This document shows, one piece after another, positions 1 to 21,646 of a DNA stretch of 24,000 bases (positions are counted from its first letter, which is position 1; every line of letters starts with the position of its first letter). Where the stretch lies: assembly GCA_046350635.1 (NCBI GenBank), contig JAXLZY010000001.1, forward strand, positions 154,727 to 178,726, read 5' to 3'. The notes under the pieces were generated by a model. That model saw only the letters and a list, made by a program, of their open reading frames with translations, did no database searches and had not been told where the DNA came from. The position numbers and the translations under genes are program-made. This stretch comes from Candidatus Saccharimonadales bacterium (GTDB lineage Bacteria > Patescibacteriota > Saccharimonadia > Saccharimonadales > CAIOMD01).

Positions 1-421
1 CGCTAGTAGCGTTGTTTGCCTTATCAAGAACGAAGTTCACAATAACTTGTGATAGGGCAACTATTACCAAACCGACAATAGCGTAAAGGATTGTATTCTT
101 CGCAGCCGTCACACCGCCTGAATCACCACCACTTGTGATGTACTTAAATCCACCGTAAATCAACATGATGACCGATACAGCACCAACAACCCATGAGAAA
201 ATACTTATAATCTTGCCGATGATAGTTGGGAGAGTATTTTGGTTTGCATTTGACTGACACGAAGCACTTGTTGCATTAGTTGGGTCGCCACATGCACCCG
301 CAGCGGCTGAATCGCCAGGTGATGTATAGACTGCAAGTGATACGCCCGTAACGACAACAGGCGCCACTAGCAGGCTAAAAGCGACAACTAGGGTACTGAA
401 TAGTAGTTTGAGTTTGTTCAT
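1..421 (-). CDS. VirB2/TrbC-like T4SS pilin paralog P6 (partial; C-terminal end runs off the left edge)
   Basis: Absent from the ORF track because it is truncated. The ATG is the reverse complement of 419-421, preceded by AGGA with a 5-nt spacer. Hand translation gives MNKLKLLFSTLVVAFSLLVAPVVVTGVSLA (signal peptide), a Cys pair (AAGACGDPTNATSASCQ), then IFSWVVGAVSVIMLIYGGFKYITSGGDSGGVTAAKNTILYAIVGLVIVALSQVIVNFVLDKANNATS. The frame is open to position 2 and the pattern is almost the same as ORF 501-929. Confidence 0.8.
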   Translation of the reverse strand, partial: MNKLKLLFSTLVVAFSLLVAPVVVTGVSLAVYTSPGDSAAAGACGDPTNATSASCQSNANQNTLPTIIGKIISIFSWVVGAVSVIMLIYGGFKYITSGGDSGGVTAAKNTILYAIVGLVIVALSQVIVNFVLDKANNATS

Positions 422-500
422 TTTATTCCTTTATTAATTTATTACCTGTTTTATACCACGTAATCACCCCCACTTCAAGGGGTGTGACTACTGCACATGT

Positions 501-926
501 TTATTTACATTGCGAAGACGTAGGGTTTGTGGCGCAGTTAGTCTTTTTTAGAACAAAAATTACCAGCGTCTGCGAAAGTGCAACGACCACCAAACCGATA
601 AGTGCATAGATTATCGTGTTTTTAGCTGAGGTTATCTTGCCAGCATCACCACCACTCGTGACGTATTTAAAGCCTGCAAATATAAGCATAATTACTGCTA
701 TTGCACCAACGACCCATGAAAAGATGTTTATTATCTTAGCCACTAGGTCCTCTGGCTGTGCGCTTCCGGTACTTCCATCATTACACACCCCATTAGCATA
801 TGTGCCTCCGATAGCCTGACAAGCTGCTTGTTTGGAAGCATCGCTAGCGGCAATTGCAGGAACGGTAGCAAAAAGTGCTGTAGCGCTAAGCACCAATGCA
901 GAAAATAAAGTTAATAGTATTCTCAT
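501..926 (-). CDS. VirB2/TrbC-like T4SS pilin paralog P5
   Basis: Signal peptide MRILLTLFSALVLSATALFATVPAIAA and a Cys pair (AACQAIGGTYANGVCN). Two hydrophobic helices are joined by a short basic loop (IFSWVVGAIAVIMLIFAGFKYVTSGGDAGKITSAKNTIIYALIGLVVVALSQ), and a second Cys pair sits at the C-terminus (NCATNPTSSQCK). The track start at 929 is a TTG only 1 nt after a GGAGG (reverse complement of 931-935). The ATG at 926 has usable spacing, so I prefer 926. Confidence 0.8.
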   Translation of the reverse strand: MRILLTLFSALVLSATALFATVPAIAASDASKQAACQAIGGTYANGVCNDGSTGSAQPEDLVAKIINIFSWVVGAIAVIMLIFAGFKYVTSGGDAGKITSAKNTIIYALIGLVVVALSQTLVIFVLKKTNCATNPTSSQCK

Positions 927-934
927 CAATCCTC

Positions 935-1336
935 CTATAGTTTCGAAATTACTAAACCGACAATCACTCTCGCAAGGACAATCACAATCAAACCAACGAG
1001 CGAATAGATTATTGTCTCACGTGCTTGAGTAACTTTACCAGGGTCGCCACTACTTTTTGCGAGCCTAAACCCTGCAAAAATCATCATTATGACCGCTATT
1101 GCCCCAGCAAACCATGCTATAAGATTTGCGATATTTATAATTATACCGTTACTACCTGTTATTGGATCGGTAGAGTCAGTAACACACGCCGGGTTAGCTG
1201 CGCGTTGCTCGGGGCTTAGTGATTGGCATGTTGCGTCGATAGAATCGGTAGGCGTTGCGGCCATTATTACCGAGTTTGGTTGAACCATTACGAGGAAAGA
1301 AATCAAAAAGACTGTAGTCAATAAAAGGGCTTTCAT
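935..1336 (-). CDS. VirB2/TrbC-like T4SS pilin paralog P4
   Basis: 133 aa with a signal peptide (MKALLLTTVFLISFLVMVQPNSVIMAA) and a Cys pair (ATCQSLSPEQRAANPACV). The conserved hairpin is IAWFAGAIAVIMMIFAGFRLAKSSGDPGKVTQARETIIYSLVGLIVIVLA. The ATG shares one base with the stop of the upstream paralog (TAATG at 1334-1338), and AGGA lies 8 nt upstream. Confidence 0.8.
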   Translation of the reverse strand: MKALLLTTVFLISFLVMVQPNSVIMAATPTDSIDATCQSLSPEQRAANPACVTDSTDPITGSNGIIINIANLIAWFAGAIAVIMMIFAGFRLAKSSGDPGKVTQARETIIYSLVGLIVIVLARVIVGLVISKL

Positions 1337-1641
1337 TACACTTTTCCTATAACGAACGCTACAATTGCAGTCGCACTTAATGAAATTATAAGCCCAATAA
1401 CGGCATACACAATTGTCTTTCGGGCAGAAACAATTTTTTGTGGATCACCAATTGAAATAACATACTTAAAACCTGCTATAACTATCACAAGAAAGCTTAT
1501 TGCGGCAATTAGACCAAAAACAAAATACAATATACTCTGCAACTTAGCATCAGATGTAGTGGGTGATTTTGGTATACCTAACGAGTTTGGATCTCCCAAA
1601 ACTCCCGTTGCGACATAAATTAAGTTCTTAATTGGTTCCAT
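1336..1641 (-). CDS. Short VirB2/TrbC-like pilin paralog P3 (no obvious signal peptide, no Cys)
   Basis: 101 aa. It carries the conserved two-helix hairpin (LYFVFGLIAAISFLVIVIAGFKYVISIGDPQKIVSARKTIVYAVIGLIISLSATAIVAFVIG). The N-terminus (MEPIKNLIYVATGVLGDPNSLGIPKSPTTSD) lacks the basic-hydrophobic leader seen in the other five. Confidence 0.7.
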   Translation of the reverse strand: MEPIKNLIYVATGVLGDPNSLGIPKSPTTSDAKLQSILYFVFGLIAAISFLVIVIAGFKYVISIGDPQKIVSARKTIVYAVIGLIISLSATAIVAFVIGKV

Positions 1642-1649
1642 GAATACTA

Positions 1650-2147
1650 TTATGATACCTGTTTAGATAAGAAGGATGCCACAAATCTAACAATTTGGGA
1701 TGCGAGCAGGGCAATCACCAAACCAATGATGGCATTTAGTATAGTTTTACGGGCAGAAACAATTTTGTTGGGCTCGCCCTGAGAAACAACAAAACTAAAA
1801 CCACCGTAAATTACAAACCCAACAGCCACAACAGCCGAAAGACGAATTAATATATCCGTAATCGCTAATAAAATTAAAAATATTATCTTAAGCCCATCTC
1901 CGTCAGCCGGCTTAGTCTGAATTTCACATCCGGTATCCGTTTTAACTACATCTAAATATTCATACCAGGTCGGAATGCCAAATATAGTTGTTTTTTTGCC
2001 GCAGGTTGCATCTGCAGCGGCCTGTGCCGCAGCTGTTGCAGAATCTGCCGGAGGCTGTGGGGCGGCATAGGCCGAAACAGGTACAATGACTGCGTAAAAC
2101 ATAAAGAAACCAGCTAACACAAAACTTACGGGTAAGAACCGCTTCAT
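1650..2147 (-). CDS. VirB2/TrbC-like T4SS pilin paralog P2
   Basis: The track ORF extends to 2174, but the second ATG (2145-2147) is preceded by a perfect AGGAGGTG with a 7-nt spacer. It yields a clean signal peptide (MKRFLPVSFVLAGFFMFYAVIVPVSAYAA) and forms a TAATG overlap with the stop of the upstream gene. It has a Cys pair (DATCGKK...DTGCEIQ) and the conserved hairpin VVAVGFVIYGGFSFVVSQGEPNKIVSARKTILNAIIGLVIALLASQ. Confidence 0.8.
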   Translation of the reverse strand: MKRFLPVSFVLAGFFMFYAVIVPVSAYAAPQPPADSATAAAQAAADATCGKKTTIFGIPTWYEYLDVVKTDTGCEIQTKPADGDGLKIIFLILLAITDILIRLSAVVAVGFVIYGGFSFVVSQGEPNKIVSARKTILNAIIGLVIALLASQIVRFVASFLSKQVS

Positions 2148-2737
2148 TAGAACGCACCTCCTGGTATTAACCATTGCAAGAACGCATACAAAAATATAAA
2201 TGCGGCAAGCCCTAATACGACATTTGCAATTCGTGTTTTAGCCGCCTGAACAGCTTGTGGATTATCGCGAGCAGCCGAATATTGTAACCCTCCAACAATA
2301 ATCATTAGCACTGCCCCTATACCTATAATTCCTGCAAAAATATTAATCGCCACTTTGAGCCACGTGATAATCGGGTTGTTATCCGTTGAATATTTCTCTG
2401 AGTTTGGATAAATACTACCAACGGTAACAGATTGGGCAACCGCAACTGGTTTAACAAGAACTTTTGTTTTGTCTTTGGCGCAAGCAGTATTCGTTTTACA
2501 TACTGCTGTAATGTATTTTTTATACGCGGCTTGGCCACACGCGGTATCATCAGCTGCACACTTTGCGACATCGGCAACATAGGTTGCACACTTGGCATAA
2601 TACGGCTCCTTAAGGCTTGCGCAATAATCTGTGCCATTTTCTGGAGCAGGAGCGGCCTGTGCCGTAACGCCAACCATAACGAAAAATGCAAACGTCAGCG
2701 GTGCGAGTAGGATATATTTTAATGCTTTTTTATTCAT
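2147..2737 (-). CDS. VirB2/TrbC-like T4SS pilin paralog P1 (largest, six-Cys head; first gene of the pilin operon)
   Basis: 196 aa with signal peptide MNKKALKYILLAPLTFAFFVMVGVTAQAA. Six Cys lie in an Ala/Lys-rich head (DYCASLKEPYYAKCATYVADVAKCAADDTACGQAAYKKYITAVCKTNTACAKD). The hairpin is more divergent but recognisable: IFAGIIGIGAVLMIIVGGLQYSAARDNPQAVQAAKTRIANVVLGLAAFIFLYA. Confidence 0.7.
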   Translation of the reverse strand: MNKKALKYILLAPLTFAFFVMVGVTAQAAPAPENGTDYCASLKEPYYAKCATYVADVAKCAADDTACGQAAYKKYITAVCKTNTACAKDKTKVLVKPVAVAQSVTVGSIYPNSEKYSTDNNPIITWLKVAINIFAGIIGIGAVLMIIVGGLQYSAARDNPQAVQAAKTRIANVVLGLAAFIFLYAFLQWLIPGGAF

Positions 2738-2882
2738 ATTAAGCTGTTAACGTTGCTAATATCATACAGCAATCTTGCCACGATTGCATGCCATCATTTC
2801 TGCATAGGTGTAAAACTTGTTTTAAAGTACTTGAAATAATGATACATTTATAAGAGTAAACAAACCGCTTACGTTAGTTATA
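2738..2882. promoter_or_regulatory. Divergent intergenic control region between the pilin operon (minus) and the T4SS core operon (plus)
   Basis: A 145-bp AT-rich spacer between divergent start codons. A candidate minus-strand -10 element TATGAT is the reverse complement of 2761-2766. TTGAAA (2832-2837) and TATAAG-like elements lie on the plus strand. I cannot fix exact -35/-10 pairs by eye. Confidence 0.4.
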
Positions 2883-5726
2883 ATGCTTCGCAATCTAAAA
2901 CAAATAAAATACCGTGTTGGCCTACCGATAATCGCTTTGGTCTTTTTCTTAGTAAGCGTCATTCCGGCAGTGTATACCAGTTACTACGCTTCGGCCGCAA
3001 CGGGCTCAAAAAATGATATCGACCAGCGTGTTTTTGCATTTCAAGCATATGTCACTATGTCGGATGGTAGTTGTGTTTGGGAAGATAGTGGCATATTTAC
3101 TGACGCCTCAACCTGGATGCAGACTTCTTGGAGTAGCCAGCGAAACAAAAATGTACCAGTAGGCACCGTGTTTAATCGCCAGGTTGCTAGAACCGGGGGT
3201 GAAGGCGACATTAACTGTGACAATATGAATGGCTGGGTAGATAAGGCTGTTACAGTTTGGGGGTTTGCGAGCACTAAAGAGTTCTTGGACAAGCTTGTTA
3301 CAAATGGTGGCCTCACGTTTAATAATGGTGAATATTCAAAAGTTGGCGACAAAGAAATTGAAGCCGCTATCAAAAAAACTCTACAAGCAACAACATTTTT
3401 TAGTGGCTCAGACTTAGGCGCATTATCTAAAGACGAGTTTTACTACGATGCGCTTATTAATTTTCAAGATACCTGTAGCGTCTCTTTCTCTAGCTCAGAC
3501 GCAAAGCTCAACGGAGATGATCGTGTATCAGCAAAAACGAAAAAGGTTGAGGCCGATGGCACGGTAACAGAAGGATATTGGCATTTTAGTGGAAAAGGTA
3601 CCAAGAGTGTTGGTACCGCCTTGAAACCCGGTGAGGGTACAGCAGACTGTGAAGAACTTGCATCCATGGTAAGCAGGGCAGAATATGTAGATGCATACAT
3701 AAAGTACGTGAAAGATGGTGGCACACCTCCGTCAGATGGCAGTACGGGTAGTGGCCCGGGCGCAGGAACGGCCTGCACGCAAATTATTAATCCACTTACC
3801 TGGATACTTTGCCCAATCCTTGATCTTGCAGATGGGCTGTACGGCGTGTTCACCTCATTTATTCAATCAATGCTTACTGTACAAGAATCGCTGTATGATT
3901 CAGAACAACTAAAAGCCTCTTGGGCTGCTATGCGAAATATTGCTTCATCGCTTATCGTGATTGTTGCGCTAATAATGATTGCCAGCCAAGTATTTAATTT
4001 TGATTTTCTAAGTGCCTACACAATCAAAAAGGTTTTACCGCGACTTATTATTGCAGCTATCGCTATTCAGCTATCGTGGTTTATCTTTACGACAATAATT
4101 ACGGTCATTAACGCTATAGGGCTTGGTATTTATTCGCTTATGCTGGCGCCGTTCGGGCTCAATGGTGGGGGCGGTGATATTGTTGACCTACTTGGAACAC
4201 AAAGCGAAGGCGCGAAATTATTTAGTGGCACACTAATTGCAGTTGGCGCCGGTGCGGGCTTTATTGCAGTCGGAGGCCTGGCCGGTATCGTAGCAGCTGC
4301 TATTGCTGTTGGATTTGCACTTGTAATGGCTGTGGCGACCCTAATTTTACGCAAAATGCTTATTATCGCTCTTCTCGTGCTTGCTCCACTTGCACTTGTG
4401 GCATGGATTTTGCCGGGTACACAAAAATACTGGACTACTTGGTGGAATCTATTTATACGGTTATTGTTTATGTTCCCGTTAATTATGATTCTTATCGCGA
4501 GCGGTAAGATTTTTGCAGCATTACTCGCCCAAAGTGGCGCTGGCTATGCGGTAGAGCAAGGAATAAAACCATTAATCATTATTATTGCCTACTTTATTCC
4601 ACTGTTCCTAATACCGGCGACATTTAAATTCGCTGGTGGAATATTTGCCACCGTATCAGGAAAGATGAGTAGCTTCGGCAAGCAATGGGGCAAGCAAAGT
4701 GGAGATCTTGCCAAAGGTAAAACCATTGAAAGTGTTGGCCGCTTAGCACGTAATAGGAATAATAGATTCACCAGAGGACTTAATTACGCTTCTCATGGAG
4801 CAGTCACATCCAGGCAAAGATCAAGAGCCGCAGAAACAAGTCGCGCAGCCATTCATGAACGTGAAAAAAACTTTCAGGCACTTGTTGAAGCTAGAACAGC
4901 AGGCATGGATCGTGGTCGTAAGCACGCCGAATTACTCGATATAATTAACAACGGTAGCGAAGATATGGCAGAGGGAGCAGCTAGGATTTTAGCCGCGGAG
5001 CGTGGCTGGAATCAAATGGATAATTTAAACGCTAGGGGGCTCCATAGAGTTAGGGAGATTGCTGCCAATGATCCAACAGGTTTCGGTAGCTCACTATGGT
5101 CTTCCAGAAGAGATATTGCAGATGGTCCTGCGGATAGAATAAGTACGATGAGTGCAAATGATGCTGCAGGCCAACATAGTTCATTCTTTACTGCTGGTAA
5201 CGTTAATCAGCTTGACCCAAGAACTGCGGCTGATTTAACTAGAAACCAAACTCTTATGTCAGCACTTAATGCTGACACTCAAGAGCTAATATACCAACGT
5301 GCTGGGATACCTAATCCTATAGCTGGTGGTGGGGGTAATCCTGCCAGAGGTGGAGCTCCTGCCCCTGCCGCTGGTGGTGGTGGCGCTCCTGCTGGTGGAA
5401 ACCCTGCTGCCGGTGGAGGTAATAGAGGTCAAGCTGGTGGAAACACTCCGCCACGAGTCATCAATTTAACACAGGGTACAACTGGCGCTGGGACTACCGG
5501 TGCAGCTACAATGTTACACACAGCAAGTAATGTTCAAACTCAAATTAATAATGCTGGGGGCATGAGTTCTCTTAGTTCAGAAGAGGTTATTGATATCTAT
5601 AATCATGCCGATCGAAACTGGAGAAATGATACTGAAGGTACCCAGATTGGCCTCGATGCAATTGATGAACTAAGAAATCGAGGCATCTTACCACCATCTA
5701 ATAATGGTCCGACGACAGGCCCGTAA
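2883..5726 (+). CDS. VirB6/TrbL-like polytopic membrane protein with large extracytoplasmic N-domain and long cytoplasmic tail
   Basis: 947 aa. An N-terminal anchor (LPIIALVFFLVSVIPAVY) is followed by a roughly 300-aa Cys-containing soluble domain. A block of about 7-8 hydrophobic helices spans aa ~350-590 (e.g. LIVIVALIMIASQVF, LIIAAIAIQLSWFIFTTIITVINAIGLGIY, IAVGGLAGIVAAAIAVGFALVMAVATLIL, LIIALLVLAPLALVAWIL, LIIIIAYFIPLFLIPA). This is typical of TrbL/VirB6 and the Gram-positive PrgH/TcpH class. The basic tail contains a Gly/Ala/Pro low-complexity stretch (aa 813-856). The family call rests on topology and gene context only. Confidence 0.6.
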   Translation: MLRNLKQIKYRVGLPIIALVFFLVSVIPAVYTSYYASAATGSKNDIDQRVFAFQAYVTMSDGSCVWEDSGIFTDASTWMQTSWSSQRNKNVPVGTVFNRQVARTGGEGDINCDNMNGWVDKAVTVWGFASTKEFLDKLVTNGGLTFNNGEYSKVGDKEIEAAIKKTLQATTFFSGSDLGALSKDEFYYDALINFQDTCSVSFSSSDAKLNGDDRVSAKTKKVEADGTVTEGYWHFSGKGTKSVGTALKPGEGTADCEELASMVSRAEYVDAYIKYVKDGGTPPSDGSTGSGPGAGTACTQIINPLTWILCPILDLADGLYGVFTSFIQSMLTVQESLYDSEQLKASWAAMRNIASSLIVIVALIMIASQVFNFDFLSAYTIKKVLPRLIIAAIAIQLSWFIFTTIITVINAIGLGIYSLMLAPFGLNGGGGDIVDLLGTQSEGAKLFSGTLIAVGAGAGFIAVGGLAGIVAAAIAVGFALVMAVATLILRKMLIIALLVLAPLALVAWILPGTQKYWTTWWNLFIRLLFMFPLIMILIASGKIFAALLAQSGAGYAVEQGIKPLIIIIAYFIPLFLIPATFKFAGGIFATVSGKMSSFGKQWGKQSGDLAKGKTIESVGRLARNRNNRFTRGLNYASHGAVTSRQRSRAAETSRAAIHEREKNFQALVEARTAGMDRGRKHAELLDIINNGSEDMAEGAARILAAERGWNQMDNLNARGLHRVREIAANDPTGFGSSLWSSRRDIADGPADRISTMSANDAAGQHSSFFTAGNVNQLDPRTAADLTRNQTLMSALNADTQELIYQRAGIPNPIAGGGGNPARGGAPAPAAGGGGAPAGGNPAAGGGNRGQAGGNTPPRVINLTQGTTGAGTTGAATMLHTASNVQTQINNAGGMSSLSSEEVIDIYNHADRNWRNDTEGTQIGLDAIDELRNRGILPPSNNGPTTGP

Positions 5727-5737
5727 ATGAGTAGTGT

Positions 5738-6874
5738 ATGGCTGTATATAAAGTAATACAAGATATTGAGGCAGAAGATAAACTCCTTGGGCCATTAACT
5801 CTCAAACAGTTTATCTTTGCGGTTATTTCTGCTGGTTTTGTGTTTGTAGCTTTTATTGCTGTTTCAAAACTTGGCAATATATTAGTTGCTATACCGTTTT
5901 TACCTTTTATCTTAGTATTCGGCGTACTAGCCGCACCACTTGGGCGCGATCAACCAACAGATGTGTGGTTGGCGGCTCAAATTCGTTTTTTTACCAAACC
6001 CCGCAAGCGCATTTGGGATCAGTCTGGTATTAAAAACTTAGTTACCATTACCGTCCCTAAAAAGATAGAAAAGATTTATACCGATGGCTTAAGCCAGCAA
6101 GAGGTTAAAAGCCGTTTGCAAGCGCTCGCCGAAACAATTGATAGCCGCGGCTGGGCCGTAAAAAACGTCGCCGTTAATATGTATGCTACCCCAGCCTATG
6201 CAATGGCGTCTGACCGCCTTGTCGACCCTTCAAGCTTGCCACAAGCCGTACCGACAACTGATATAACAGCAGCCGATGACATCATGGATGCAACCTACAA
6301 CCCGGTAGCACAACATTTTGATCAAATGGTACATGATGCTACTACGGCGCAAAAGAATGCTGCAATCGCACGAATGCAGCAGGCGATGGCAAGCCCTCAA
6401 GCTCCACCGCAAACAAACCAACAAGCCCCGGTTGACCCTTGGTTTATACATCAACCAGACCCGTCTGCAGTACCGCAAAATAGTGCAATGTTTAGTGCTC
6501 AAACCGTTGCTCCTGTAGCTGTAGCTACACAACAACCAGAAGATGGGTTTTTGTCTGAACACACCGAACAACCATCGTCGCCAGAAGAGGCCGAGTTACT
6601 CGAACATATAAAAGCCGAAAAACAGCAAGAGCATCAAGGTTGGGCACATCACAAGACTATTAAAACACCCGAAGAAGTCGCAGCCGAAGAAGCGGACCAA
6701 AAACAAAAAGAGCTAGAAGAAAAAGCAAAACAAGCACAAGCGGTGACACCCCCTAAAAACCCTGGTATAGTAGAACTTGCAAATACTAACGATCTTAGTG
6801 TGGCAAGCGTAGCGCAACTTGCGAAACGAAACAGCCAGAATGACGACGGAGAAGTTGTTATTAAACTGCACTAG
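5738..6874 (+). CDS. PrgI/VirB3-like small T4SS membrane protein fused to a ~230-aa disordered C-terminal tail
   Basis: The N-terminus AVYKVIQDIEAEDKLLGPLTLKQFIFAVISAGFVFVAFIAVSKLGNILVAIPFLPFILVFGVLAAPLGRDQPTDVWL matches the PrgI-family pattern as I remember it. That pattern is a conserved DIE..DK..G.LTL.Q motif followed by two TM helices. The gene sits immediately upstream of the VirB4 genes, as VirB3 analogues do. The remainder is Q/P/A/E/K-rich low complexity. Confidence 0.65.
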   Translation: MAVYKVIQDIEAEDKLLGPLTLKQFIFAVISAGFVFVAFIAVSKLGNILVAIPFLPFILVFGVLAAPLGRDQPTDVWLAAQIRFFTKPRKRIWDQSGIKNLVTITVPKKIEKIYTDGLSQQEVKSRLQALAETIDSRGWAVKNVAVNMYATPAYAMASDRLVDPSSLPQAVPTTDITAADDIMDATYNPVAQHFDQMVHDATTAQKNAAIARMQQAMASPQAPPQTNQQAPVDPWFIHQPDPSAVPQNSAMFSAQTVAPVAVATQQPEDGFLSEHTEQPSSPEEAELLEHIKAEKQQEHQGWAHHKTIKTPEEVAAEEADQKQKELEEKAKQAQAVTPPKNPGIVELANTNDLSVASVAQLAKRNSQNDDGEVVIKLH

Positions 6875-6894
6875 GGTGGGGCAACGCACAGTAT

Positions 6895-9668: not shown

Positions 9669-9679
9669 ATAAAACGCTA

Positions 9680-9708
9680 TTGCTTTTTTAGCAATTTATT
9701 GCTATAAT
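9680..9708 (+). promoter_or_regulatory. Candidate sigma-70-type promoter for the distal half of the locus
   Basis: TTGCTT (9680-9685), a 17-nt spacer, then TGC-TATAAT (extended -10; TATAAT at 9703-9708). It lies just after a weak AT-rich hairpin (ATTGCT-TTTTT-AGCAAT) downstream of the virB4 stop. Confidence 0.5.
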
Positions 9709-9724
9709 ATGCATATTAATTAGG

Positions 9725-10663
9725 ATGCTTTTAATGTTTTCTTCGAAAAATTCCTACGCAGATACAAAAGCTAACAAGCGAGTGGCTGCTGGTGCGATGA
9801 TACTCGCAGGGGCACTAGCCTTAGCTGGCTGCGGAAACTCTGATAATAATGCCCCGTCATCACCAAACACACAGCCCGTTGCTACTGCGACCCCCTCAAC
9901 CCCAGAAAGTCCAACAGAGACGCCATCAGTAAGCCCAACTACTTCACCTGAAAACGTTGTGCTACAATTCGATACTGATAAATTACCCGTAACCCCCAAA
10001 AATTATTCCGAAGCTCGCGAAACATTAGAATTTCTTATCGATAAACAAGTAGACAAAAACCTTCGATCTAAATTATGGGATGCAATCGAATCAAATAACG
10101 CCGAATATTTCAATAAACTTAGTATTTCTAAAGAAGATGTTGAAGCAAATCTTCAGTATTACGAAGAATACCTAAAAACATTGGATATAATCGCAGACCA
10201 ATTCAGCGAAACTCCTGAAGCACGCATACCCATAAAATCGAATCGCCTCATGGGCGAAAGTATGGTTATTGTGTTACGAGAACTTCTGTCGAGAAACGAT
10301 ATTGTTTCTAAATTGCAAGACAAAGCATCTGATATAAATGTAACTACTTTTTCTAAAAGAACTCGGGTGGATAATTCACCTATTACATCAGTTGCATTTA
10401 CAATTGCAAAAGTTGGCAAAGATCCCGAAGCTTGGAGCGCAGGCTACCATAACGAAGACGGCTCATTAAAAGTAATAACCGACGACATGATAATCGTGCA
10501 AGAACAGTTAAAGTTCAATCCAGCATCAGATTCAATGCAGTCAGAAGTACTTTCTCGAATTGTATATACCACTGTTAACAAGCTCGGCTCACTATGTATT
10601 GCAAAGCTTAGTGGTTTCGATACACACTGTGACGCACAAGTTGCAACCCATTTTGCTGAATAG
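9725..10663 (+). CDS. Lipoprotein of unknown function (T4SS-associated by context)
   Basis: Lipobox LALAGC with the Cys codon at 9830-9832, preceded by KANKRVAAGAMILAGA. A Pro/Thr/Ser-rich linker (PSSPNTQPVATATPSTPESPTETPSVSPTTSPE) precedes a ~230-aa domain I do not recognise. An alternative ATG at 9734 has AGGA 8 nt upstream. Confidence 0.7.
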   Translation: MLLMFSSKNSYADTKANKRVAAGAMILAGALALAGCGNSDNNAPSSPNTQPVATATPSTPESPTETPSVSPTTSPENVVLQFDTDKLPVTPKNYSEARETLEFLIDKQVDKNLRSKLWDAIESNNAEYFNKLSISKEDVEANLQYYEEYLKTLDIIADQFSETPEARIPIKSNRLMGESMVIVLRELLSRNDIVSKLQDKASDINVTTFSKRTRVDNSPITSVAFTIAKVGKDPEAWSAGYHNEDGSLKVITDDMIIVQEQLKFNPASDSMQSEVLSRIVYTTVNKLGSLCIAKLSGFDTHCDAQVATHFAE

Positions 10664-10742
10664 CCTGTAGCCTCTTTCATGCCATTACCATTTTGCTCAA
10701 AAAAATGGTAAAATAAACAGTATCATTTTGTGAAAAACTAAG

Positions 10743-13700
10743 ATGCCAAATGCTGTTTATGACGATGAGAAGGAGCGCACGGCTAATCCTGATTCTAGCC
10801 TTGTTAATGATAGCAACGAAACAGCTCAAACGGCATCTGATTCATCTTCGGATACAAACTTAGCTGATAAAGAATCAGATGCCGCAAAAAACGATACGTT
10901 TGACGAACCGCCAACAGCTGAAAAAAGTTTTTATAACCCAATGGGCGATAAGCAAAATTCACTCAAGTCTTCATCGACTTCAATCGTTTCAAATATAGCA
11001 AGACGGCGCGTAATATTAGGTGCCCTAATTCCAATAGGTCTAATTCTTATTGTTCTTTTTTTGATGAGTGCCCTTAAAATTCCAAACTACGCCGCAAATA
11101 TTGCAACCTATAGATTCGCTCGCTCAGCGATGGAATATGCTAAAACATCGTCAGAGATTGATGGAGCAAAAATTGCCATAGAAACAAGCGATGATACAAA
11201 ATACGGCAAATTCAGAGAAAAGTACGCAAATCTAAGATCAGCAACGTGGGGGAAGTTTGATCAGTACCGACCAGAAAAGGTGTATCAAAACCTTAAGGCA
11301 GACGGAACGATAAAGTACGAGGTAGAAACCAAAAAATGGAAGGGAATCGAAACCCGTACAAAAATCACAGCGGTTATTATTAATAACGAACGAATTCCCG
11401 TAGAAAGCCAAACATTCAGACAACGTTTTGGGAGCCCAGTAGACTCTTACAGAGATAGGTTGAAGTATTCTAGGGCAGTTAATGCACAAATTAGTGAAGC
11501 GTTAAAGGGTTCTAGTACACTCGTAAGAAGCTCGGTGGCCAAAAAAATACGTGCAGATTTAAATATTAAGCTACGATTTTGGGAAAAGGGTGCCAAAAAC
11601 TATAGTGGCCTTAAGCCAGATGAAGCCGACCAATTGTTACTTAAAGAAAATGACGAAAGAATACGCACCAAACCAACTGGCACGGCAACAACGAGCTCAA
11701 TAAACGAAGCGACCGATAAAGTAGACAATGCTATCAAGGACTGTATTGACGATGCCGACTGTGCCAAGGAGATGGCGAGTGGTGAAAACCCAGAAAAAAT
11801 AACCACCGCATTAACAGAATCTGCCGACGAAGGCATTGTAAGAAAAGCTCTTGGTATTATTAGCCCAACATACGGGATTGTTGTGCCTGCTTGTATGATT
11901 TACGATGGCTCGATTGATCACGCATCTGATGCAATCGATGCGCAAACTGCCAGCACCATTAAAACCTACAACACATTTGCAACTCAGGCTGACCAGCAAA
12001 AAGTCGGAGACACCTCTCCAGAGGCGATAGCTGCCGTCAATAGGAAATTAGCGGCTGGTGATTCGGTTCCCGATCAATACCTAAGTGGGCGCACGGTTGA
12101 TACATCTGTAGAAAAAAGCCCGCAAGCATCGGTGCTTGGCGACTTTACAATGTTAAACGCTTTAATACCAAATCAAACCGTGGCAAATGGTTTAAATACT
12201 ATCGCAGAGCCAGTATGTAAAACCTTAACCAATGTAGGAGTTAATGCAGCTATTGCTGGAGTGAGCATTGTAATAGCTATCTTTACTGGCGGGACAAGTG
12301 GTGCCGCTGAAGGTGCCGGAAGTCAAAGTATTCGCGCCATTGTCACCGCAACCCTAGAAAAAGGCTTTCTTAAAACGATAGTTAAATCAGCAGTTGATAA
12401 GGTTGCGACAATTGAAGGCAGAAATCAACTTAAGGGTTTTAGTAAGAAATTTGCTCGAGATTTTGTGGCTATAGAAGGAGCTACCGCTCTCACAAAACTA
12501 TTAGTAATGTCACGTTCAGGGCTTATAAATAATGGCGCTACATCAAGTGGTGCTGACTATATTAATCAGGCAGATATGGGTGCGGTAAACGAAAACAACA
12601 TCTATATGCAACAAATGATGTATGGTGCACCAATGACGAATGCAAACACCGCACTTGCCGATAAAAGCGCAACAACTTTATTAGCAGAAAAAGAGTCCCA
12701 GGCTCCGGGGCTTGGCAAGTATTTTGGGATTACTTCACCCGTTTCAAAAATCAGAAACAATATGGCTATTGGCTTTGCGAGTATGAAGCAAAGGGGACTA
12801 TCATCAAGTTTGAAATATTTCAGTTTTGGCTCGGTCTTAAAGTCGATTATTCCAAATCAAAATGTGAGTGCCGCAGACACCTCAGGAGCAAACTGGGGCA
12901 TCGTTCAATGGGGTTGGACAGACGAAGAAAACGCTTTAATTGCCCGCGATTCATCGTATGGGGTAGTTGAAAATGAAGCTGCATTATCCGATCAAGTTCG
13001 TAGTGTGGTAGAGTCAGAATATGGTAAGTGTTTTTCAAGTACTATGGGCACCTTGCTTGGTTCGGGTGACATTAAAAGAAATGAGTCGGGGGATGTGGTA
13101 ACAAATGACGGTTTGTGTTCGCCAGAAAACCTCGGCCCAAAGAACCCTAAGTACGGCGATGCGGTATTTAGGTGGCGTCTTTCTAAAAAGCGCGAGATGG
13201 TATTAGATCAAAACCTTGGGCTACAAAACCCATCAAAAGATGGTAAAAGCGATAGTGGTGGAACTGTAGGTGGTGGCGGGAGTTCGGGTGGTCAAGGCAT
13301 GAGTGCCGACGAGGTTTTTGCGCAATGTAAAAACAATACCGCAACCGGCAAAGTAAAAATTGTTTGCGGGACCACCGAACTAAATGGGGTACCCTACGGA
13401 GAAAACTTCGTAAGCGCCTGGAAGGATGCTAAGCCATCTCCGTTAGGTTGTAATTCATACGCCAATATAGCAATTGCTCGTGCAACGAACGGAAAATATC
13501 GCAAAGATTATTGCTCGGGTGGATACGAAAAAGAAGGTGCGCGTGAAGGTAATTTCAAAAAAATCGCCAAAACTGCCGTTCAACCCGGAGATTTAATCAT
13601 TCACGACCGCTTGGGTGGTGCGTCATGTGGTGGCACGAGTGGAGAGGGCCACGTTGAAGTTGTTGTTTCGTACGATCCCAAAACCGACAAACTTATTACT

Positions 13701-13808
13701 ACAGGAGCCCACAGTTCAAGAACACCGTCAGGTGTCACCGATCCGGTTAACCTCAAGAATAGTGACTATTGGGATTACGGCGTTGAGTATGTCGGAGGTG
13801 GCTTGTAA
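10743..13808 (+). CDS. Large membrane-anchored protein with C-terminal CHAP/NlpC-P60-like cysteine peptidase/amidase domain (PrgK/TraG/Orf14-like cell-wall hydrolase or effector)
   Basis: 1021 aa. An acidic disordered N-terminus is followed by a TM helix (VILGALIPIGLILIVLFLMSAL) and ~740 aa that I cannot assign. A Gly-rich linker (GGTVGGGGSSGGQG) leads to the last 170 aa (nt 13296-13805). That region has a candidate catalytic Cys (PLGCNSYANIAI, codon 13449-13451), PGDLIIH, and GHVEVVVSYDPKTDKLITTGAHS. The order is the Cys...PGD...GHV...(polar) order typical of CHAP domains. Confidence 0.65.
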   Translation: MPNAVYDDEKERTANPDSSLVNDSNETAQTASDSSSDTNLADKESDAAKNDTFDEPPTAEKSFYNPMGDKQNSLKSSSTSIVSNIARRRVILGALIPIGLILIVLFLMSALKIPNYAANIATYRFARSAMEYAKTSSEIDGAKIAIETSDDTKYGKFREKYANLRSATWGKFDQYRPEKVYQNLKADGTIKYEVETKKWKGIETRTKITAVIINNERIPVESQTFRQRFGSPVDSYRDRLKYSRAVNAQISEALKGSSTLVRSSVAKKIRADLNIKLRFWEKGAKNYSGLKPDEADQLLLKENDERIRTKPTGTATTSSINEATDKVDNAIKDCIDDADCAKEMASGENPEKITTALTESADEGIVRKALGIISPTYGIVVPACMIYDGSIDHASDAIDAQTASTIKTYNTFATQADQQKVGDTSPEAIAAVNRKLAAGDSVPDQYLSGRTVDTSVEKSPQASVLGDFTMLNALIPNQTVANGLNTIAEPVCKTLTNVGVNAAIAGVSIVIAIFTGGTSGAAEGAGSQSIRAIVTATLEKGFLKTIVKSAVDKVATIEGRNQLKGFSKKFARDFVAIEGATALTKLLVMSRSGLINNGATSSGADYINQADMGAVNENNIYMQQMMYGAPMTNANTALADKSATTLLAEKESQAPGLGKYFGITSPVSKIRNNMAIGFASMKQRGLSSSLKYFSFGSVLKSIIPNQNVSAADTSGANWGIVQWGWTDEENALIARDSSYGVVENEAALSDQVRSVVESEYGKCFSSTMGTLLGSGDIKRNESGDVVTNDGLCSPENLGPKNPKYGDAVFRWRLSKKREMVLDQNLGLQNPSKDGKSDSGGTVGGGGSSGGQGMSADEVFAQCKNNTATGKVKIVCGTTELNGVPYGENFVSAWKDAKPSPLGCNSYANIAIARATNGKYRKDYCSGGYEKEGAREGNFKKIAKTAVQPGDLIIHDRLGGASCGGTSGEGHVEVVVSYDPKTDKLITTGAHSSRTPSGVTDPVNLKNSDYWDYGVEYVGGGL

Positions 13809-14368
13809 TGAATGCGTTGCAAATTCTTATTAAATATAAGGTGCTAATTATTAGTTTGTTCACCTTTATTTTAATAACATTCATTGTATTTAAATTTGCC
13901 CCAGTGACGGTTGTAAATCCTGAACCAATTAATAATATGTATATAAATAATGTTCATGCCGAGGCTTTAAAGGTAAGTACAACATCGGGGAAAAAACGAA
14001 TCGGATTTAGTAATCCCACAACTGTATATAAAGAAGAAACTGTTTTCTTATGGCCGTTCCAGACATATACTCCTAAATATTCTGGTGAAAAGCAGAATAC
14101 TGCATCTATATTAAAAGAGTCTGGATACACAGATATAGCTGAATATCCATTTATTTCAGAGAAGTATTTTTCACAAAATAGATGGTTGGTAGTCTACGAA
14201 AAGAGTAGCGGTGGCTTTGACACAACGCGGGTTGTGGGTGTATTAAAATACAGCTCAAAATCTGGATTATGGGAAGTGGTCGATCGCAGCTCAAGCCTAC
14301 ACGAGGACTGGTGGGATAGCATAATGCCAGACGAGATATTAAACTACATAGAAAACGGTGGTAGGTAG
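13808..14368 (+). CDS. Small N-terminally anchored protein of unknown function (candidate immunity or VirB8-like component)
   Basis: 186 aa with a TM anchor (VLIISLFTFILITFIVFKF) and a ~150-aa extracytoplasmic domain. There is a strong GGAGGTG 7 nt upstream, and the ATG overlaps the upstream stop (TAATG at 13806-13810). It is AT-rich: my hand counts of three 60-nt lines give about 28-37% GC. Confidence 0.6.
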   Translation: MNALQILIKYKVLIISLFTFILITFIVFKFAPVTVVNPEPINNMYINNVHAEALKVSTTSGKKRIGFSNPTTVYKEETVFLWPFQTYTPKYSGEKQNTASILKESGYTDIAEYPFISEKYFSQNRWLVVYEKSSGGFDTTRVVGVLKYSSKSGLWEVVDRSSSLHEDWWDSIMPDEILNYIENGGR

Positions 14369-14369
14369 C

Positions 14370-16985
14370 ATGGCTATCTTGGGTTTACTTGGATTTGAAG
14401 CAATAAATAGACGTCGGCTATTGCGTTCGTTTGTATTACTTTTTGTTCTATTCGGCTTTATCTTCTCAACGTTATATTCACAAATATCGTACGCACAAGG
14501 TATAACAGTGAGTGATCTTAACGCCATACTCGAAAAACATCCAAACTATGACCCTAATGCGACTGATTGCCAAAACGTAACCCCAGCACTTCAAACAGTA
14601 ACAACAAATAAATCTGTGTATGTAATTGGTGATTCTTACCTTAGGGATTCAGCCACACTACTTACAACCAGCTTAAAAGCATCTGGTTACGAGACGGTAA
14701 CAATCAATGGTCATGGTGGTCGTGGTATTAACCGACCTGCAAACGATGGTGCGCCCGCAGCTTTAACCGCCATCGAGCAAGATAAAGATAAAATTGCATC
14801 TGCAGGTACGATAATTATTATTCTAGGTACGAATCCTTCTGACGCAGCAACTCCACCAGGTCCAATTAATGCTTACGATTCTTCAATACCTGTTTTTATG
14901 AAAAAATTAACTGGCTATAATGCTCAAGCTCGTATTTTCTGGGTTAATACTGATCACCTTGATACTCAGAGAACGGTATTAATTAAACCAACAAACACAG
15001 CCATCGAAAAATACTCGAGTCAGTTTTCGTATAAAGTTGTCGATTGGTATAGCGCTTTAGAAAAAACTACTAAAAAACAGTACTTAGACCCTTCTTCAAG
15101 CTACCTACACCCAAACACGACAAAAGGGTATCCACTTTTTGTAGACACAATTAAAGCGAGTGTGGGCAGTCCTATTACCTCATACCAAGACTCCTCAAAC
15201 GCACCGTCGGTAGCTAGCAACTCAGTAAACCTTAAATTATTGACAGATGTACAGGAAAAAAATAAACCAAATGTCCCTATTATCTGGAATTGGCTCCGCG
15301 CAAAAGGATTTAGTGAGGTTCAGACTGCCGGAATTATGGGTAATATTTATCAAGAAAGTAAGTTCCAGATAGACCTTTGGGATCCACCTGCATACGGCTT
15401 AATTCAATGGCAACATGAACGCCTAGATCAATTAAAAAAGTTTGCCTCTAATCGTAATATTCCTCTTGATAATATCGATACCCAGATGCGTTTTATGATG
15501 ACCGAGTTAACGAGTAAGACTGGTCGATTTTATGAACCGGTTTATCTACCACTGAAAAAGACTACCGATTTAGCGACAGCAGTTAATTTAATGCTTGAGC
15601 ATTACGAAGAGCCAGGGGATTACGAAACCGAGCGCCCATTACGACTTAAGTGGGCAAAAGAAGTACTAGAAACTATGGGTGGAAGTGCCGTTTCAACACC
15701 CACTCCAGCACCAACTGATGGAAAAACAAATTGTGCCCCCGTGACAGGTAATTCCTGTGAGTCAATTTTGCTTCCGACAATTATCGACCCCAGTAAGTTG
15801 GGAAGTGCCATAGATAAGTATATTAGCGATGTCAGTAAATCATATAACGGCAAAAAATCACCATTTGACGGCCTTGGTTCAAAGTTTGTAGAAGGGGGTA
15901 TTAAATCGGGTATTAATCCATTTATCGCAGTGGTTCACGCACACAAAGAATCTCTTTTTGCACTGTATGATGCAAAGGGTTGGCATAACTATACGTTCGC
16001 AACTAAAGAAGCTGCTGCGGCTGGGAATACCGCTCAGCTTTCTCCTTCGTATAATGCCTATGGTCGGTCTGCGGGCGGTGATCAGCCGACTGTTTGGTAT
16101 AACGGAAGTAATGGTCCACGCCCCGTCTATAAGTGGTCTTCTTGGGAAAATAGCTTAACGGGTGATGATAGTTTCTTTGCGTATTACAAACGCAAATGGG
16201 TAGACGAAAAAAAATACACCTCTATAGACGACATCATTAAAGAATACGCGCCAGCATCCGATGGCAACAACCCCTCAGAATACGCTTCTTTTATGCATAA
16301 TAATATTTCAAAACTAATCTCACTTGCCGGCGATTCTATCGACTGTGGTAGTGGTGGAGCTGGTGCCGGTGGTTCTGGTGGCACAAAACTTGACGGTAAA
16401 GAAACTGTAAAACTTCAATATGGGTACTACGTTAAAGATGGGGGTGATCCGAAGATGATTTACTATAGCCAATACGACGCTAGATATAATGGCGCAGAAG
16501 GTAAGAAGATATACCCCAGCTATGACAGAACAGATCTAGGACCTTTTGGCCAGTGTGGATGTTTTTCAACCAGTATGGCGATGGCAATAAACACAATCGG
16601 AGCCAATAAAAACATTAATCCTCTTGATATCGGAAAAGAAGTGCTAGCGGCCGGCGTCAACGCAGGTGGTTGTGGGTACAGTGGCGAATCTGGCTTTGGT
16701 GAAAAACTTGGTCCAAAATTTAATGTTTCGATTAAGTCTACAAACTCATTCACGGTTGCAAAACAAGGTTTACGTGATGGCGGATTGGTTGTGTTAAGTG
16801 TTGGACCTTCTGAGTTTACGACGGGAAGTCACTATATAGTTTTAAGAGGTTTGACGAGTGATGGTAAATTTGCTGTTGCTAATCCAACAAACAAAGACCA
16901 GACACTAACTGGTACATACACTGAAAGCCACATAAGTAGTATCTTTAATGGTAGCGGAAAGATGTGGGTAGTAAGTGCTAAGTGA
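14370..16985 (+). CDS. Four-module secreted/anchored peptidoglycan hydrolase (SGNH esterase + phage-tail-lysozyme-like + GH73 glucosaminidase-like + C39-like cysteine peptidase)
   Basis: The track start 14358 is a GTG inside the previous gene. The ATG at 14370 follows GGTGGTAGG, so I prefer it. Residue numbers below use track numbering. N-terminal TM: FVLLFVLFGFIFSTLY. Module 1 (aa ~86-265): VYVIGDSY, NGHGGRG, ILGTNPSD, YLHPNTTKGY (SGNH blocks). Module 2 (aa ~305-437): TAGIMGNIYQESKF...YGLIQWQHERLDQLKKFA...DTQMRFMMTEL...LEHYEEP (phage tail lysozyme family pattern). Module 3 (aa ~475-655): INPFIAVVHAHKESLFA...NAYGRS...FFAYYKRKW (GH73-like). A Gly linker (GSGGAGAGGSGG) leads to module 4 (aa ~683-875): YYSQYD...GQCGCFSTSMAMAI...GSHYIVLRGLTSDGKFAVANP (Peptidase_C39-like pattern). 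Confidence 0.7.
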   Translation: MAILGLLGFEAINRRRLLRSFVLLFVLFGFIFSTLYSQISYAQGITVSDLNAILEKHPNYDPNATDCQNVTPALQTVTTNKSVYVIGDSYLRDSATLLTTSLKASGYETVTINGHGGRGINRPANDGAPAALTAIEQDKDKIASAGTIIIILGTNPSDAATPPGPINAYDSSIPVFMKKLTGYNAQARIFWVNTDHLDTQRTVLIKPTNTAIEKYSSQFSYKVVDWYSALEKTTKKQYLDPSSSYLHPNTTKGYPLFVDTIKASVGSPITSYQDSSNAPSVASNSVNLKLLTDVQEKNKPNVPIIWNWLRAKGFSEVQTAGIMGNIYQESKFQIDLWDPPAYGLIQWQHERLDQLKKFASNRNIPLDNIDTQMRFMMTELTSKTGRFYEPVYLPLKKTTDLATAVNLMLEHYEEPGDYETERPLRLKWAKEVLETMGGSAVSTPTPAPTDGKTNCAPVTGNSCESILLPTIIDPSKLGSAIDKYISDVSKSYNGKKSPFDGLGSKFVEGGIKSGINPFIAVVHAHKESLFALYDAKGWHNYTFATKEAAAAGNTAQLSPSYNAYGRSAGGDQPTVWYNGSNGPRPVYKWSSWENSLTGDDSFFAYYKRKWVDEKKYTSIDDIIKEYAPASDGNNPSEYASFMHNNISKLISLAGDSIDCGSGGAGAGGSGGTKLDGKETVKLQYGYYVKDGGDPKMIYYSQYDARYNGAEGKKIYPSYDRTDLGPFGQCGCFSTSMAMAINTIGANKNINPLDIGKEVLAAGVNAGGCGYSGESGFGEKLGPKFNVSIKSTNSFTVAKQGLRDGGLVVLSVGPSEFTTGSHYIVLRGLTSDGKFAVANPTNKDQTLTGTYTESHISSIFNGSGKMWVVSAK

Positions 16986-17502
16986 TAAACTCAAACAACT
17001 ATCGGACGAGCAAAAAAAACAACTGCTAATTATCGGTGTGGTGATTCTTGTAATACTGTTTTTTGGAGTTATCGGATTCACGAGTGGCTCTGGGAATAAT
17101 AATACAAGTGTAAAAAAAGATGCTTATGGCGATTTAATCGAAACTAAGATTTCTGGTCAACCAATAGAATCAAAAGACGACACTTTTGTTATACGATTTA
17201 ATGATTTTCTTACAAATAACGTATCACCCCTACAGCTTGATGCACTTAAAAAATCAATTAGGTTTTATATATGGGACACTATAAATAGTGATGAGACTAA
17301 GGCTGTTTTTGACGATGGTAAATTTGAATCTCAGGGTGAATCTAGTATCTATACGGTGACAGTAAGAACAAACAACAATACTACAAAATTTACAATTAGA
17401 ATGAAGATAGATAATAAACTAAATATTGTGTCTGCGACTGCGGATTACAATGGAGTATCGACAGATTTATCAGTCACTCCAAGAACGACTAACCAAGACT
17501 GA
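16975..17502 (+). CDS. Small N-terminally anchored protein of unknown function (second candidate immunity or VirB8-like component)
   Basis: 175 aa. The GTG start overlaps the upstream gene by 11 nt, and there is no in-frame ATG before the TM helix. The TM anchor is LLIIGVVILVILFFGVIGF, followed by a ~130-aa Asn/Thr/Asp-rich domain. It is AT-rich: sampled 60-nt lines give about 28-38% GC. Its 3' end overlaps the convergent recF by 14 bp. Confidence 0.55.
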   Translation: MLSDKLKQLSDEQKKQLLIIGVVILVILFFGVIGFTSGSGNNNTSVKKDAYGDLIETKISGQPIESKDDTFVIRFNDFLTNNVSPLQLDALKKSIRFYIWDTINSDETKAVFDDGKFESQGESSIYTVTVRTNNNTTKFTIRMKIDNKLNIVSATADYNGVSTDLSVTPRTTNQD

Positions 17503-21323: not shown

Positions 21324-21335
21324 AAGTGTTCGCAA

Positions 21336-21600: not shown

Positions 21601-21603
21601 CGC

Positions 21604-21632
21604 TTGTAAGTCGCGACCTCTTATGGTAGACT
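21604..21632 (+). promoter_or_regulatory. Candidate rpmH promoter
   Basis: TTGTAA (21604-21609), a 17-nt spacer, then TAGACT (21627-21632), 14 nt upstream of the rpmH ATG. Confidence 0.4.
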
Positions 21633-21646
21633 ATTCAGCTGAAGTT

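Follow-up and report, generated by a model that had tools for sequence, protein, structure and literature searches.

Ordered pilin genes and a fast-evolving hydrolase cassette in a probable origin-proximal type IV secretion system of a Saccharimonadales bacterium

A chromosomal cluster beside the origin

The 24,000-nucleotide stretch analyzed here (hereafter the window; contig JAXLZY010000001.1, positions 154,727 to 178,726 of the forward strand) comes from an environmental Saccharimonadales metagenome-assembled genome (MAG), and the NCBI tags of the locus run from U0491_00955 to 00965. It holds a cluster of 15 genes, six on the minus strand (1-2737) and nine on the plus strand (2883-17502), which is very probably a Saccharibacterial type IV secretion system (T4SS) of the "Patescibacteria-clade" and non-mobile. 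The best explanation overall is likely to be that it is the origin-proximal T4SS of Saccharibacteria, the ortholog of a cluster described in Southlakia epibionticum. The machine is chromosomal and vertically inherited, and is derived from the conjugation systems of monoderm bacteria (MPF_FATA), with DNA-processing functions lost and VirB2-type pilins gained. A preliminary description of the window had annotated the cluster correctly, and all 15 genes that it called were found as open reading frames (ORFs). It named no resolved architecture for such systems, but the proximity to the origin, the missing relaxase, and the pilin arrays have already been published (PMC10633639, PMC12102498, PMC12857230).

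The cluster of S. epibionticum ML1 was delimited as SEML1_0006-0019 and described as an apparent T4SS whose nearest kin are Gram-positive conjugative systems (Wang et al. 2023 Cell, PMC10633639). It has essential pilins and no recognizable coupling or relaxase proteins, and by transposon sequencing (Tn-seq) nearly all of the orthologous genes are essential, including the six pilins and both hydrolases (PMC10633639). Read from the origin side, dnaA, dnaN, and recF are followed in that organism by two small exported proteins, then by a protein with lysozyme, GH73, and cysteine-peptidase domains and one of 1113 aa that ends in a DD-peptidase fold; VirB4, a TrsD-like protein, PrgI, VirB6-like proteins, six pilins, Hsp20, and ComF complete the series (PMC10633639, supplementary tables). 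Judged by gene content and order, the window cluster is the apparent ortholog of SEML1_0006-0019 plus the two small genes adjoining recF (SEML1_0004-0005). In both organisms the cluster lies between recF-dnaN-dnaA and Hsp20/ComF and is without a relaxase or a type IV coupling protein (T4CP). Six divergent VirB2-like pilins with the same size pattern are present in both, the VirB6-like, PrgI, TrsD-like, and VirB4 genes stand in the same order, and directly after VirB4 comes a protein of ~1000-1100 aa with a C-terminal peptidoglycan peptidase, then the lysozyme/GH73/cysteine-peptidase protein and small exported proteins.

The two clusters also differ in several respects. The window carries a single VirB6-like gene, whereas S. 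epibionticum has two, plus a non-essential NTF2-like gene. Here an orphan lipoprotein gene separates VirB4 from the first of the two large hydrolases (Big1), whose C-terminus is of the NlpC/P60 type in the window and of a Hedgehog/DD-peptidase fold in S. epibionticum. The second large hydrolase (Big2) has an extra SGNH-like N-terminal domain here, and one small protein (Sm1) is interleaved between the hydrolases; a second (Sm2) adjoins recF. The PEGA/prealbumin-like small proteins of S. epibionticum have no detectable similarity to Sm1 and Sm2 and are set apart from them without direct comparison.

Relatives of the VirB4 protein were confirmed in 511 GTDB species genomes, and the comparisons below use the best 80 (L001-L080), which are 81-95% identical to it and are labeled as Saccharibacteria, Saccharimonadales, Patescibacteria, or unclassified MAGs. 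Synteny was counted in the 55 related Saccharibacteria loci long enough to reach recF. All 55 have the order pilins - VirB6-PrgI-TrsD-VirB4 - variable cassette - recF-dnaN(-dnaA), and in all 55 the cassette from VirB4 to recF spans 4.5-8.5 kb. A VirB6-like gene and a divergent pilin array precede VirB4 wherever upstream sequence is present. The comparison beside recF that the preliminary description had proposed thus bears out its view of a fixed chromosomal machine rather than an integrative and conjugative element (ICE).

The flanks point in the same direction. A Logan contig 100% identical to the window (L081), used for genes cut by the window edge, places the 3' end of a convergent Hsp20 gene beyond the outermost pilin gene in the organism itself. 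In relatives the flank past the pilins holds Hsp20 and a ComF-type phosphoribosyltransferase and then PGI, GroEL, and ValRS within 10 kb, and in S. epibionticum the genes past the pilins (0020-0042) are housekeeping. A PD-(D/E)XK endonuclease-family gene was seen in one relative (L102:12168-12674), ~2 kb past the pilin array and after Hsp20 and ComF; it is isolated, with no integrase or relaxase nearby. The GC content of the window is 42-45% throughout, with no compositional break.

Pfam and NCBIfam scans of the window covered the 15 cluster proteins and five neighbors, and no relaxase and no VirD4/TcpA coupling protein was found among these 20 proteins or among the ORFs scanned in the 10-kb flanks of two relatives. 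Neither a VirB7/9/10 core nor VirD4 was detected in the window scans, in which the XVIPCD signals of the Xanthomonas T4SS (X-T4SS) were not specifically searched, and the window contains no tRNA, flanking direct repeats, or Rfam match. The absences listed in the preliminary description (coupling ATPase, relaxase, outer-membrane core, tRNA, and flanking repeats) were therefore reproduced. Against L001, the closest relative and the reference for identity and for the ratio of nonsynonymous to synonymous substitution rates (dN/dS), dN/dS is 0.011 for VirB4, 0.038 for TrsD, and 0.073 for PrgI, compared with 0.038 for dnaN and 0.056 for recF. VirB4 is as constrained as dnaN, and the core is under strong purifying selection.

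A survey of the phylum Patescibacteria reported MPF_FATA ancestry, TrsD, PrgI/VirB3, VirB6, VirB2 arrays ranging from 2 to 11 genes, a near-absence of relaxases, and dnaA, dnaN, rnpA, and rpmH close to the T4SS (Quiñonero-Coronel et al. 2025 Microb Genom, PMC12102498), and nothing essential differs here from that Patescibacteria-clade T4SS. With the MPF_FATA conjugative systems (pCF10 Prg/Pcf, pIP501 Tra, pGO1 Trs, the C. difficile CTn CD1110 type, and ICEBs1) the cluster shares a CD1110-family VirB4, PrgI, and probably TrsD, the absence of an outer-membrane core, and anchored multi-domain hydrolases that combine glycosidase and peptidase, as in PrgK, TraG, and CwlT. It differs from them in that relaxase, T4CP, oriT, and adhesin are absent in or next to the cluster, and in that the locus is chromosomal, vertically inherited, presumably essential by orthology with S. 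epibionticum, and not mobile. The VirB2-type pilins set it further apart from MPF_FATA conjugative systems; elsewhere, Gram-positive T4SSs lack such pilins (PMC12857230).

The translocation core and the pilin array

Four plus-strand genes encode the core. The first (2883..5726) encodes a putative extended VirB6/TrbL-like polytopic membrane protein of 947 aa, named from a precomputed match to PF19590 (TrbL_3) and from a simple Kyte-Doolittle scan, by which all hydrophobic segments in this study were called. It has an N-terminal hydrophobic segment, a hydrophilic stretch of ~320 aa that is probably extracytoplasmic, about six hydrophobic segments, and a hydrophilic tail of ~365 aa. A Gly/Ala/Pro-rich low-complexity coding repeat lies in this C-terminal tail (5317-5447). 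The VirB6-like gene is kept upstream of PrgI in 53 of the 80 GTDB loci. The PrgI/VirB3-like protein that follows (378 aa, 5738..6874, plus strand) matches PF12666 over residues 5-92 (2.4e-10; 41.2 bits, cutoff 27), in agreement with its earlier annotation, and carries an unusually long C-terminal tail of ~285 aa that is rich in Q, P, A, and E.

The VirB4 ATPase (634 aa, 7764..9668, plus strand) lacks an N-domain of its own and matches PF19044, PF12846, and PF01935. It is of the CD1110/MPF_FATA type, scoring 357.6 bits on NF045971 (cutoff 325) with alignment to model positions 180-734, and its Walker A (KSGAGKS) and Walker B (LVIDEAW) motifs are intact. Among solved structures the nearest is the VirB4 of Thermoanaerobacter (4AG5, 7.7e-48), and the VirB4 ATPase that had been called from the sequence is well supported. 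Immediately upstream, a TrsD-like gene (289 aa, 6895..7764, plus strand), whose stop codon overlaps the VirB4 start, encodes a putative free-standing VirB4 N-terminal module with matches to NF045971 and NF041427. Because the TrsD-like protein matches the N-terminal part of the VirB4 model and VirB4 itself is without an N-domain, VirB4 appears to be divided between two genes, one for the N-module and one for the ATPase, which matches the description for Patescibacteria (PMC12102498).

The minus strand carries the pilin genes, numbered here from the VirB6 side. Pilin 1 (196 aa, 2147..2737; PF18895 3e-9) has a long, Cys-rich ectodomain. It is followed by pilin 2 (165 aa, 1650..2147; 1.8e-6, barely over the cutoff), pilin 3 (101 aa, 1336..1641; 1.7e-10), pilin 4 (133 aa, 935..1336; 7.3e-13), and pilin 5 (501..926; 1.3e-13), which measures 141 aa from ATG in the L081 gene call and also matches NF045849 (Mbov_0395-type pilin, 1.8e-7). 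Pilin 6, farthest from VirB6 (1..421; 1.4e-14), is cut by the window edge and has a full length of 150 aa in L081. All six products score above the gathering score of PF18895 (T4SS_pilin), with 28-54 bits (cutoff 26.6), as expected from their earlier identification as VirB2-type pilins. They have the layout of VirB2, with two hydrophobic helices flanking a short SGGDxGK loop, and five of the six add a hydrophobic leader and a variable N-terminal ectodomain, often containing Cys. In pilin 3, which belongs to a short class, the N-terminal hydrophobic segment is absent in the window copy; the third pilin is always ~95-110 aa.

Six genes is the modal array size, found in 27 of 48 arrays of relatives, and the size pattern is conserved. 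Among the 27 six-gene arrays, the pilins at positions 1, 2, and 3 have a constant window counterpart in 27, 27, and 24 arrays, respectively, and positions 4-6 form a closer trio. Pilins at the same position score 58-107 bits across genomes, in comparison with 43.5 bits between positions inside one genome. The six pilins are apparently ancient, order-conserved paralogue classes and not recent duplicates. Taken with the Tn-seq result that S. epibionticum needs all six, the positional orthology suggests non-redundant subunit classes, as in a heteromeric filament, and argues against recent duplication for variation. The phylum survey, in contrast, reads the arrays as variable paralogues that are possibly host-adapting (PMC12102498). 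The positional orthology of the pilins is not stated in the papers on this T4SS (PMC10633639, PMC12102498, PMC12857230) and is an increment of the present analysis.

The cassette after VirB4 and the origin region

The genes between VirB4 and recF are of a different character. The first (9725..10663, plus strand) encodes a lineage-specific lipoprotein of no known family, and its lipobox (LALAGC) agrees with the preliminary description. A search among 5.8 billion proteins returned only the query. A counterpart, 30% identical, was seen only in L001, and none was found between VirB4 and the Big1-family gene in the other 53 loci reaching recF.

Big1 (1021 aa, 10743..13808, plus strand) is a predicted anchored wall hydrolase, described here from family comparison, an AlphaFold 2 (AF2) model, and a transitive assignment of its C-terminus. 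It consists of a ~90-aa N-terminal tail, a hydrophobic anchor, a conserved helical region of ~700 aa, and a C-terminal NlpC/P60-type cysteine peptidase domain; the tail is presumably cytoplasmic and the helical region presumably the ectodomain. The family has a conserved N-terminal region of ~830 aa with invariant cysteines and a variable C-terminus. The AF2 model shows a confident, nearly all-helical scaffold at residues ~110-830, for which no fold match was found among the solved structures of the PDB. Direct Pfam and PDB searches with Big1 also gave no match, and the Kelch-repeat matches of its C-terminus (phmmer against the PDB) were dismissed as spurious. Pfam and NCBIfam scans of Big1, the VirB6-like protein, the lipoprotein, Sm1, and Sm2 yielded no usable match, sub-segments at E values up to 5 included.

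The C-terminal domain was reached through its relatives. An exhaustive phmmer search with the last 177 aa of Big1 found 44 relatives, and among the 34 scanned, 14 match NLPC_P60 (PF00877) and 3 match CHAP. In the alignment of the domain the Cys (GCNSY) and the His (GHVEVVV) are invariant, and the best PDB matches of its profile are NlpC/P60 hydrolases (7cfl, CwlO, and Tn916-like Orf16/17). By this transitive search the Big1 C-terminus is predicted to be an NlpC/P60 (papain-like) peptidoglycan peptidase. The CHAP domain proposed earlier is therefore right at the level of the clan, whereas the family is NlpC/P60. Big2-like proteins of other genomes likewise terminate in this NlpC/P60-type domain.

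Comparison of 56 Big1 homologues showed that the scaffold is essentially one family, whereas the last 190 aa fall into 22 sequence clusters. The C-terminal modules detected in relatives are M23, VanY, M74, and SGNH, with NlpC/P60 in the window. A conserved N-terminus with a variable C-terminus is the architecture of polymorphic effectors, but Big1 is membrane-anchored and has no constant small partner. This polymorphic-module pattern is not stated in the papers on this T4SS (PMC10633639, PMC12102498, PMC12857230) and is a further increment of the present analysis.

Big2 (875 aa, 14358..16985, plus strand) is an anchored multi-domain wall hydrolase with, in order, an SGNH esterase-like domain (weak PF13472), Phage_lysozyme2 (PF18013, 2.6e-28), a GH73-like domain, and a C39_2/papain-like peptidase (PF13529, 1.1e-9). 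The GH73 assignment is weak, as the profile of this middle domain reaches the glucosaminidases FlgJ (1.6e-3) and LytB at about 1e-3. The S. epibionticum ortholog, SEML1_0006, is similar in composition (PF18013, PF01832, and a cysteine-proteinase domain). With the lysozyme and C39_2 domains of Big2 and the NlpC/P60-type domain of Big1, the earlier annotation of two giant wall hydrolases is sustained. A Gly/Ala/Pro-rich coding repeat was observed in the linker ahead of the Big2 peptidase domain (16339-16379).

Each hydrolase is followed in the window by a small protein with one N-terminal hydrophobic segment, as had been described. Sm1 (186 aa, 13808..14368, plus strand) has no Pfam match, and a search among 5.8 billion proteins returned the query alone; local jackhmmer found relatives in 15 loci. 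Sm2 (175 aa, 16975..17502, plus strand) has no family in the Pfam scans and a counterpart only in L001. Identity to L001 falls from 94% for VirB4 to 52-76% for the pilins, 68% for Big2, 56% for Big1, 46% for Sm2, and 30% each for the lipoprotein and Sm1. The post-VirB4 cassette evolves much faster than the core, and the gradient would fit surface-exposed, host-facing components.

The 3' end of Sm2 overlaps the stop of the convergent recF by exactly the 14 bp that had been noted (17489-17502). Pfam scans identified recF (17489-18556), dnaN (18576-19670), and dnaA (19941-21335), all on the minus strand; the longest dnaA ORF begins at TTG. Beyond dnaA the plus strand carries rpmH, rnpA, yidC, and a Jag/KhpB gene. 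A site scan found five DnaA-box-like sites, each with one mismatch, clustered between dnaA and rpmH (21357..21534), a probable oriC. The 11 such sites in the window compare with 6.6 expected, which is not significant, and it is the local clustering alone that is suggestive. Two of the sites lie in the dnaA-dnaN spacer (19671-19940) and five in the dnaA-rpmH spacer (21336-21650), a distribution that suggests a bipartite origin. An 86-aa ORF (19688-19948) was rejected as probably not a gene since it sits in the dnaA-dnaN spacer that holds two of these sites. A promoter and terminator scan was uninformative, with 30 promoter-like sites where 37 were expected by chance.

Possible workings of the machine

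The role of this T4SS has been called "completely unknown" in a 2024 perspective, which mentions both effector delivery and ComB-like uptake. The three roles proposed in the preliminary description (attachment or breaching of the host envelope, effector delivery, and ComB-like uptake) are all in print. We tentatively propose a pilus and wall-breaching conduit, a mechanism to which we would give an appreciable but minority chance. A VirB4 hexamer, held at the membrane by PrgI/VirB3 and the separate TrsD-type N-module, would power the extended VirB6 platform, which would pull the six distinct pilins from the membrane and polymerize them into a probably heteromeric tube or pilus reaching the host. 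Big1 and Big2 would open the wall of the epibiont itself and, as proposed, that of the host at the contact site, with the exchangeable C-terminal enzyme of Big1 matched to the chemistry of the host wall. The conduit would then move macromolecules needed for epibiotic growth, for which the system may be essential, by orthology with the genes tested by Tn-seq in S. epibionticum.

A stronger version, which we regard as doubtful, would have host range encoded by Big1 as a polymorphic "drill" and by a heteromeric VirB2 tube drawing in host macromolecules. The 700-aa helical stalk of Big1 would span the epibiont envelope, and the swapped enzyme (22 or more sequence types among 56 genomes) would be suited to the host's peptidoglycan chemotype. 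The heteromeric VirB2 tube would be built from the six pilin classes, which are conserved in order and individually essential.

Several observations weigh against the T4SS assignment or against this mechanism. No pilus composed of these pilins is known. The hydrolases might act on the wall of the epibiont alone, as VirB1 or PrgK does; their role at the host wall is inferred from domain swapping and fast evolution. In the core, the VirB6-like protein had no match in our own Pfam (E <= 0.01) or NCBIfam scans, and its assignment, first made in the preliminary description, rests on the precomputed PF19590 hit on the exact protein, together with the roughly six hydrophobic segments; the discrepancy may come from a difference in Pfam version or filter. 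The earlier call of a VirB4 N-module fits the position next to VirB4 and the conservation (62-80% identity to the counterparts in relatives), but its family matches are under the curated cutoffs (NF045971 positions 7-119, 4.5e-6; NF041427 TrsD, 8.7e-6), and a single-sequence AF2 model of the protein was unusable (predicted local distance difference test score, pLDDT, 35). A VirB8-like component was not found in the window.

Two further points concern the completeness and the integrity of the cluster. S. epibionticum has a VirD4-like gene far off (SEML1_0293), and by analogy the present genome may encode a distal VirD4-like coupling protein and hence recruit substrates through a T4CP. In three relatives (L002, L003, and L006; VirB4 87-90% identical), PrgI-TrsD-VirB4 is detached from the origin, the pilins, and the hydrolases (e.g., L003:7820-11905). 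The neighbors there are a Mur ligase, TsaD, ValRS, a DDAH-like gene, PGM, and GroEL, and VirB6, pilins, hydrolases, and recF are not within 10 kb. The cluster can therefore be split, and adjacency to the origin is common but not obligatory.

Among the alternatives to a pilus and wall-breaching conduit, a ComB-like import machine, in which the T4SS brings in nucleic acids of the host, or other polymers, for nutrition, survives best, and we consider it unlikely. It would explain essentiality in an organism unable to make nucleotides: Saccharibacteria are without nucleotide synthesis, and in S. epibionticum ComEC-dependent competence is dispensable and the T4SS essential, according to the literature. 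The cluster is, like ComB of Helicobacter pylori, free of relaxase and coupling protein, and ComB sets a precedent for inward transport, although its architecture is diderm (ComB7-10). A preprint describes tubular structures, possibly T4SS pili, at the host interface of a patescibacterium that feeds on host RNA (bioRxiv 10.64898/2026.06.21.733656). Inward transport, however, is not directly known from any monoderm T4SS of the clade, and no DNA- or RNA-binding component and no nuclease was found in the cluster by the Pfam and NCBIfam scans. VirB4 does match the ATPases of archaeal Ced import, but weakly (CedB 51.7 bits, CedD 27 bits), far under cutoff and as expected of a shared ATPase fold.

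A bacteria-killing machine resembling the X-T4SS, with Big1 and Big2 as translocated hydrolase effectors and Sm1 and Sm2 as the cognate immunity proteins, is quite improbable. Wall-degrading domains on both large proteins, the polymorphic C-terminus of Big1 on its conserved N-terminus, and the small membrane protein after each hydrolase would all suit such a machine. Peptidoglycan hydrolases are associated with the X-T4SS as well, contact-dependent action between bacteria is plausible here, certain Saccharibacteria are lethal to their hosts, and the delivery of effectors has been raised as a speculation (2024 perspective). However, the X-T4SS is a diderm VirB1-11/VirD4 machine with soluble XVIPCD effectors and lipoprotein immunities, whereas both hydrolases in the window are anchored at the N-terminus rather than furnished with C-terminal secretion signals, and no VirD4 is adjacent. 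The pairing of each hydrolase with a small partner, which the preliminary description had likened to X-Tfe/X-Tfi, is not conserved: in most relatives the two hydrolases stand without a small gene between them. Furthermore, the Sm1 family occurs beside at least three types of Big1 C-terminal cluster and at times follows Big2 instead, and Sm2 and the lipoprotein are ORFans confined to the lineage. Monoderm T4SSs in any case have, as is established, anchored hydrolases of several domains (PrgK, TraG, and CwlT) among their standard components (PMC12102498).

That the cluster is an ICE or its decaying remnant beside the origin, with coupling protein, relaxase, and integrase just beyond the window, has next to no chance of being right: its VirB4, PrgI, and TrsD belong to families known from Gram-positive conjugative elements and the window does end within the pilin array, leaving the left flank outside, but the unvarying gene order and chromosomal neighbors of the 55 loci, the Hsp20 neighbor and the housekeeping flanks of relatives and S. 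epibionticum, the lack of tRNA, direct repeats, and GC shift, the low dN/dS of VirB4, and the absence of relaxases near virB4 in almost all Patescibacteria (PMC12102498) speak against it.

The comparative increments of this study, namely the pilin order, the Big1 modules, and the fast cassette, leave the classification of the cluster as a Saccharibacterial T4SS unchanged. According to a 2025 review (PMC12857230), no T4SS before this one had been shown to be essential for its carrier's survival; the system is among the most intriguing open problems in the biology of Patescibacteria. The ordered pilin paralogues, and the Big1 scaffold with its swappable modules in a fast-evolving cassette, offer testable handles on host specificity and on the composition of the pilus.

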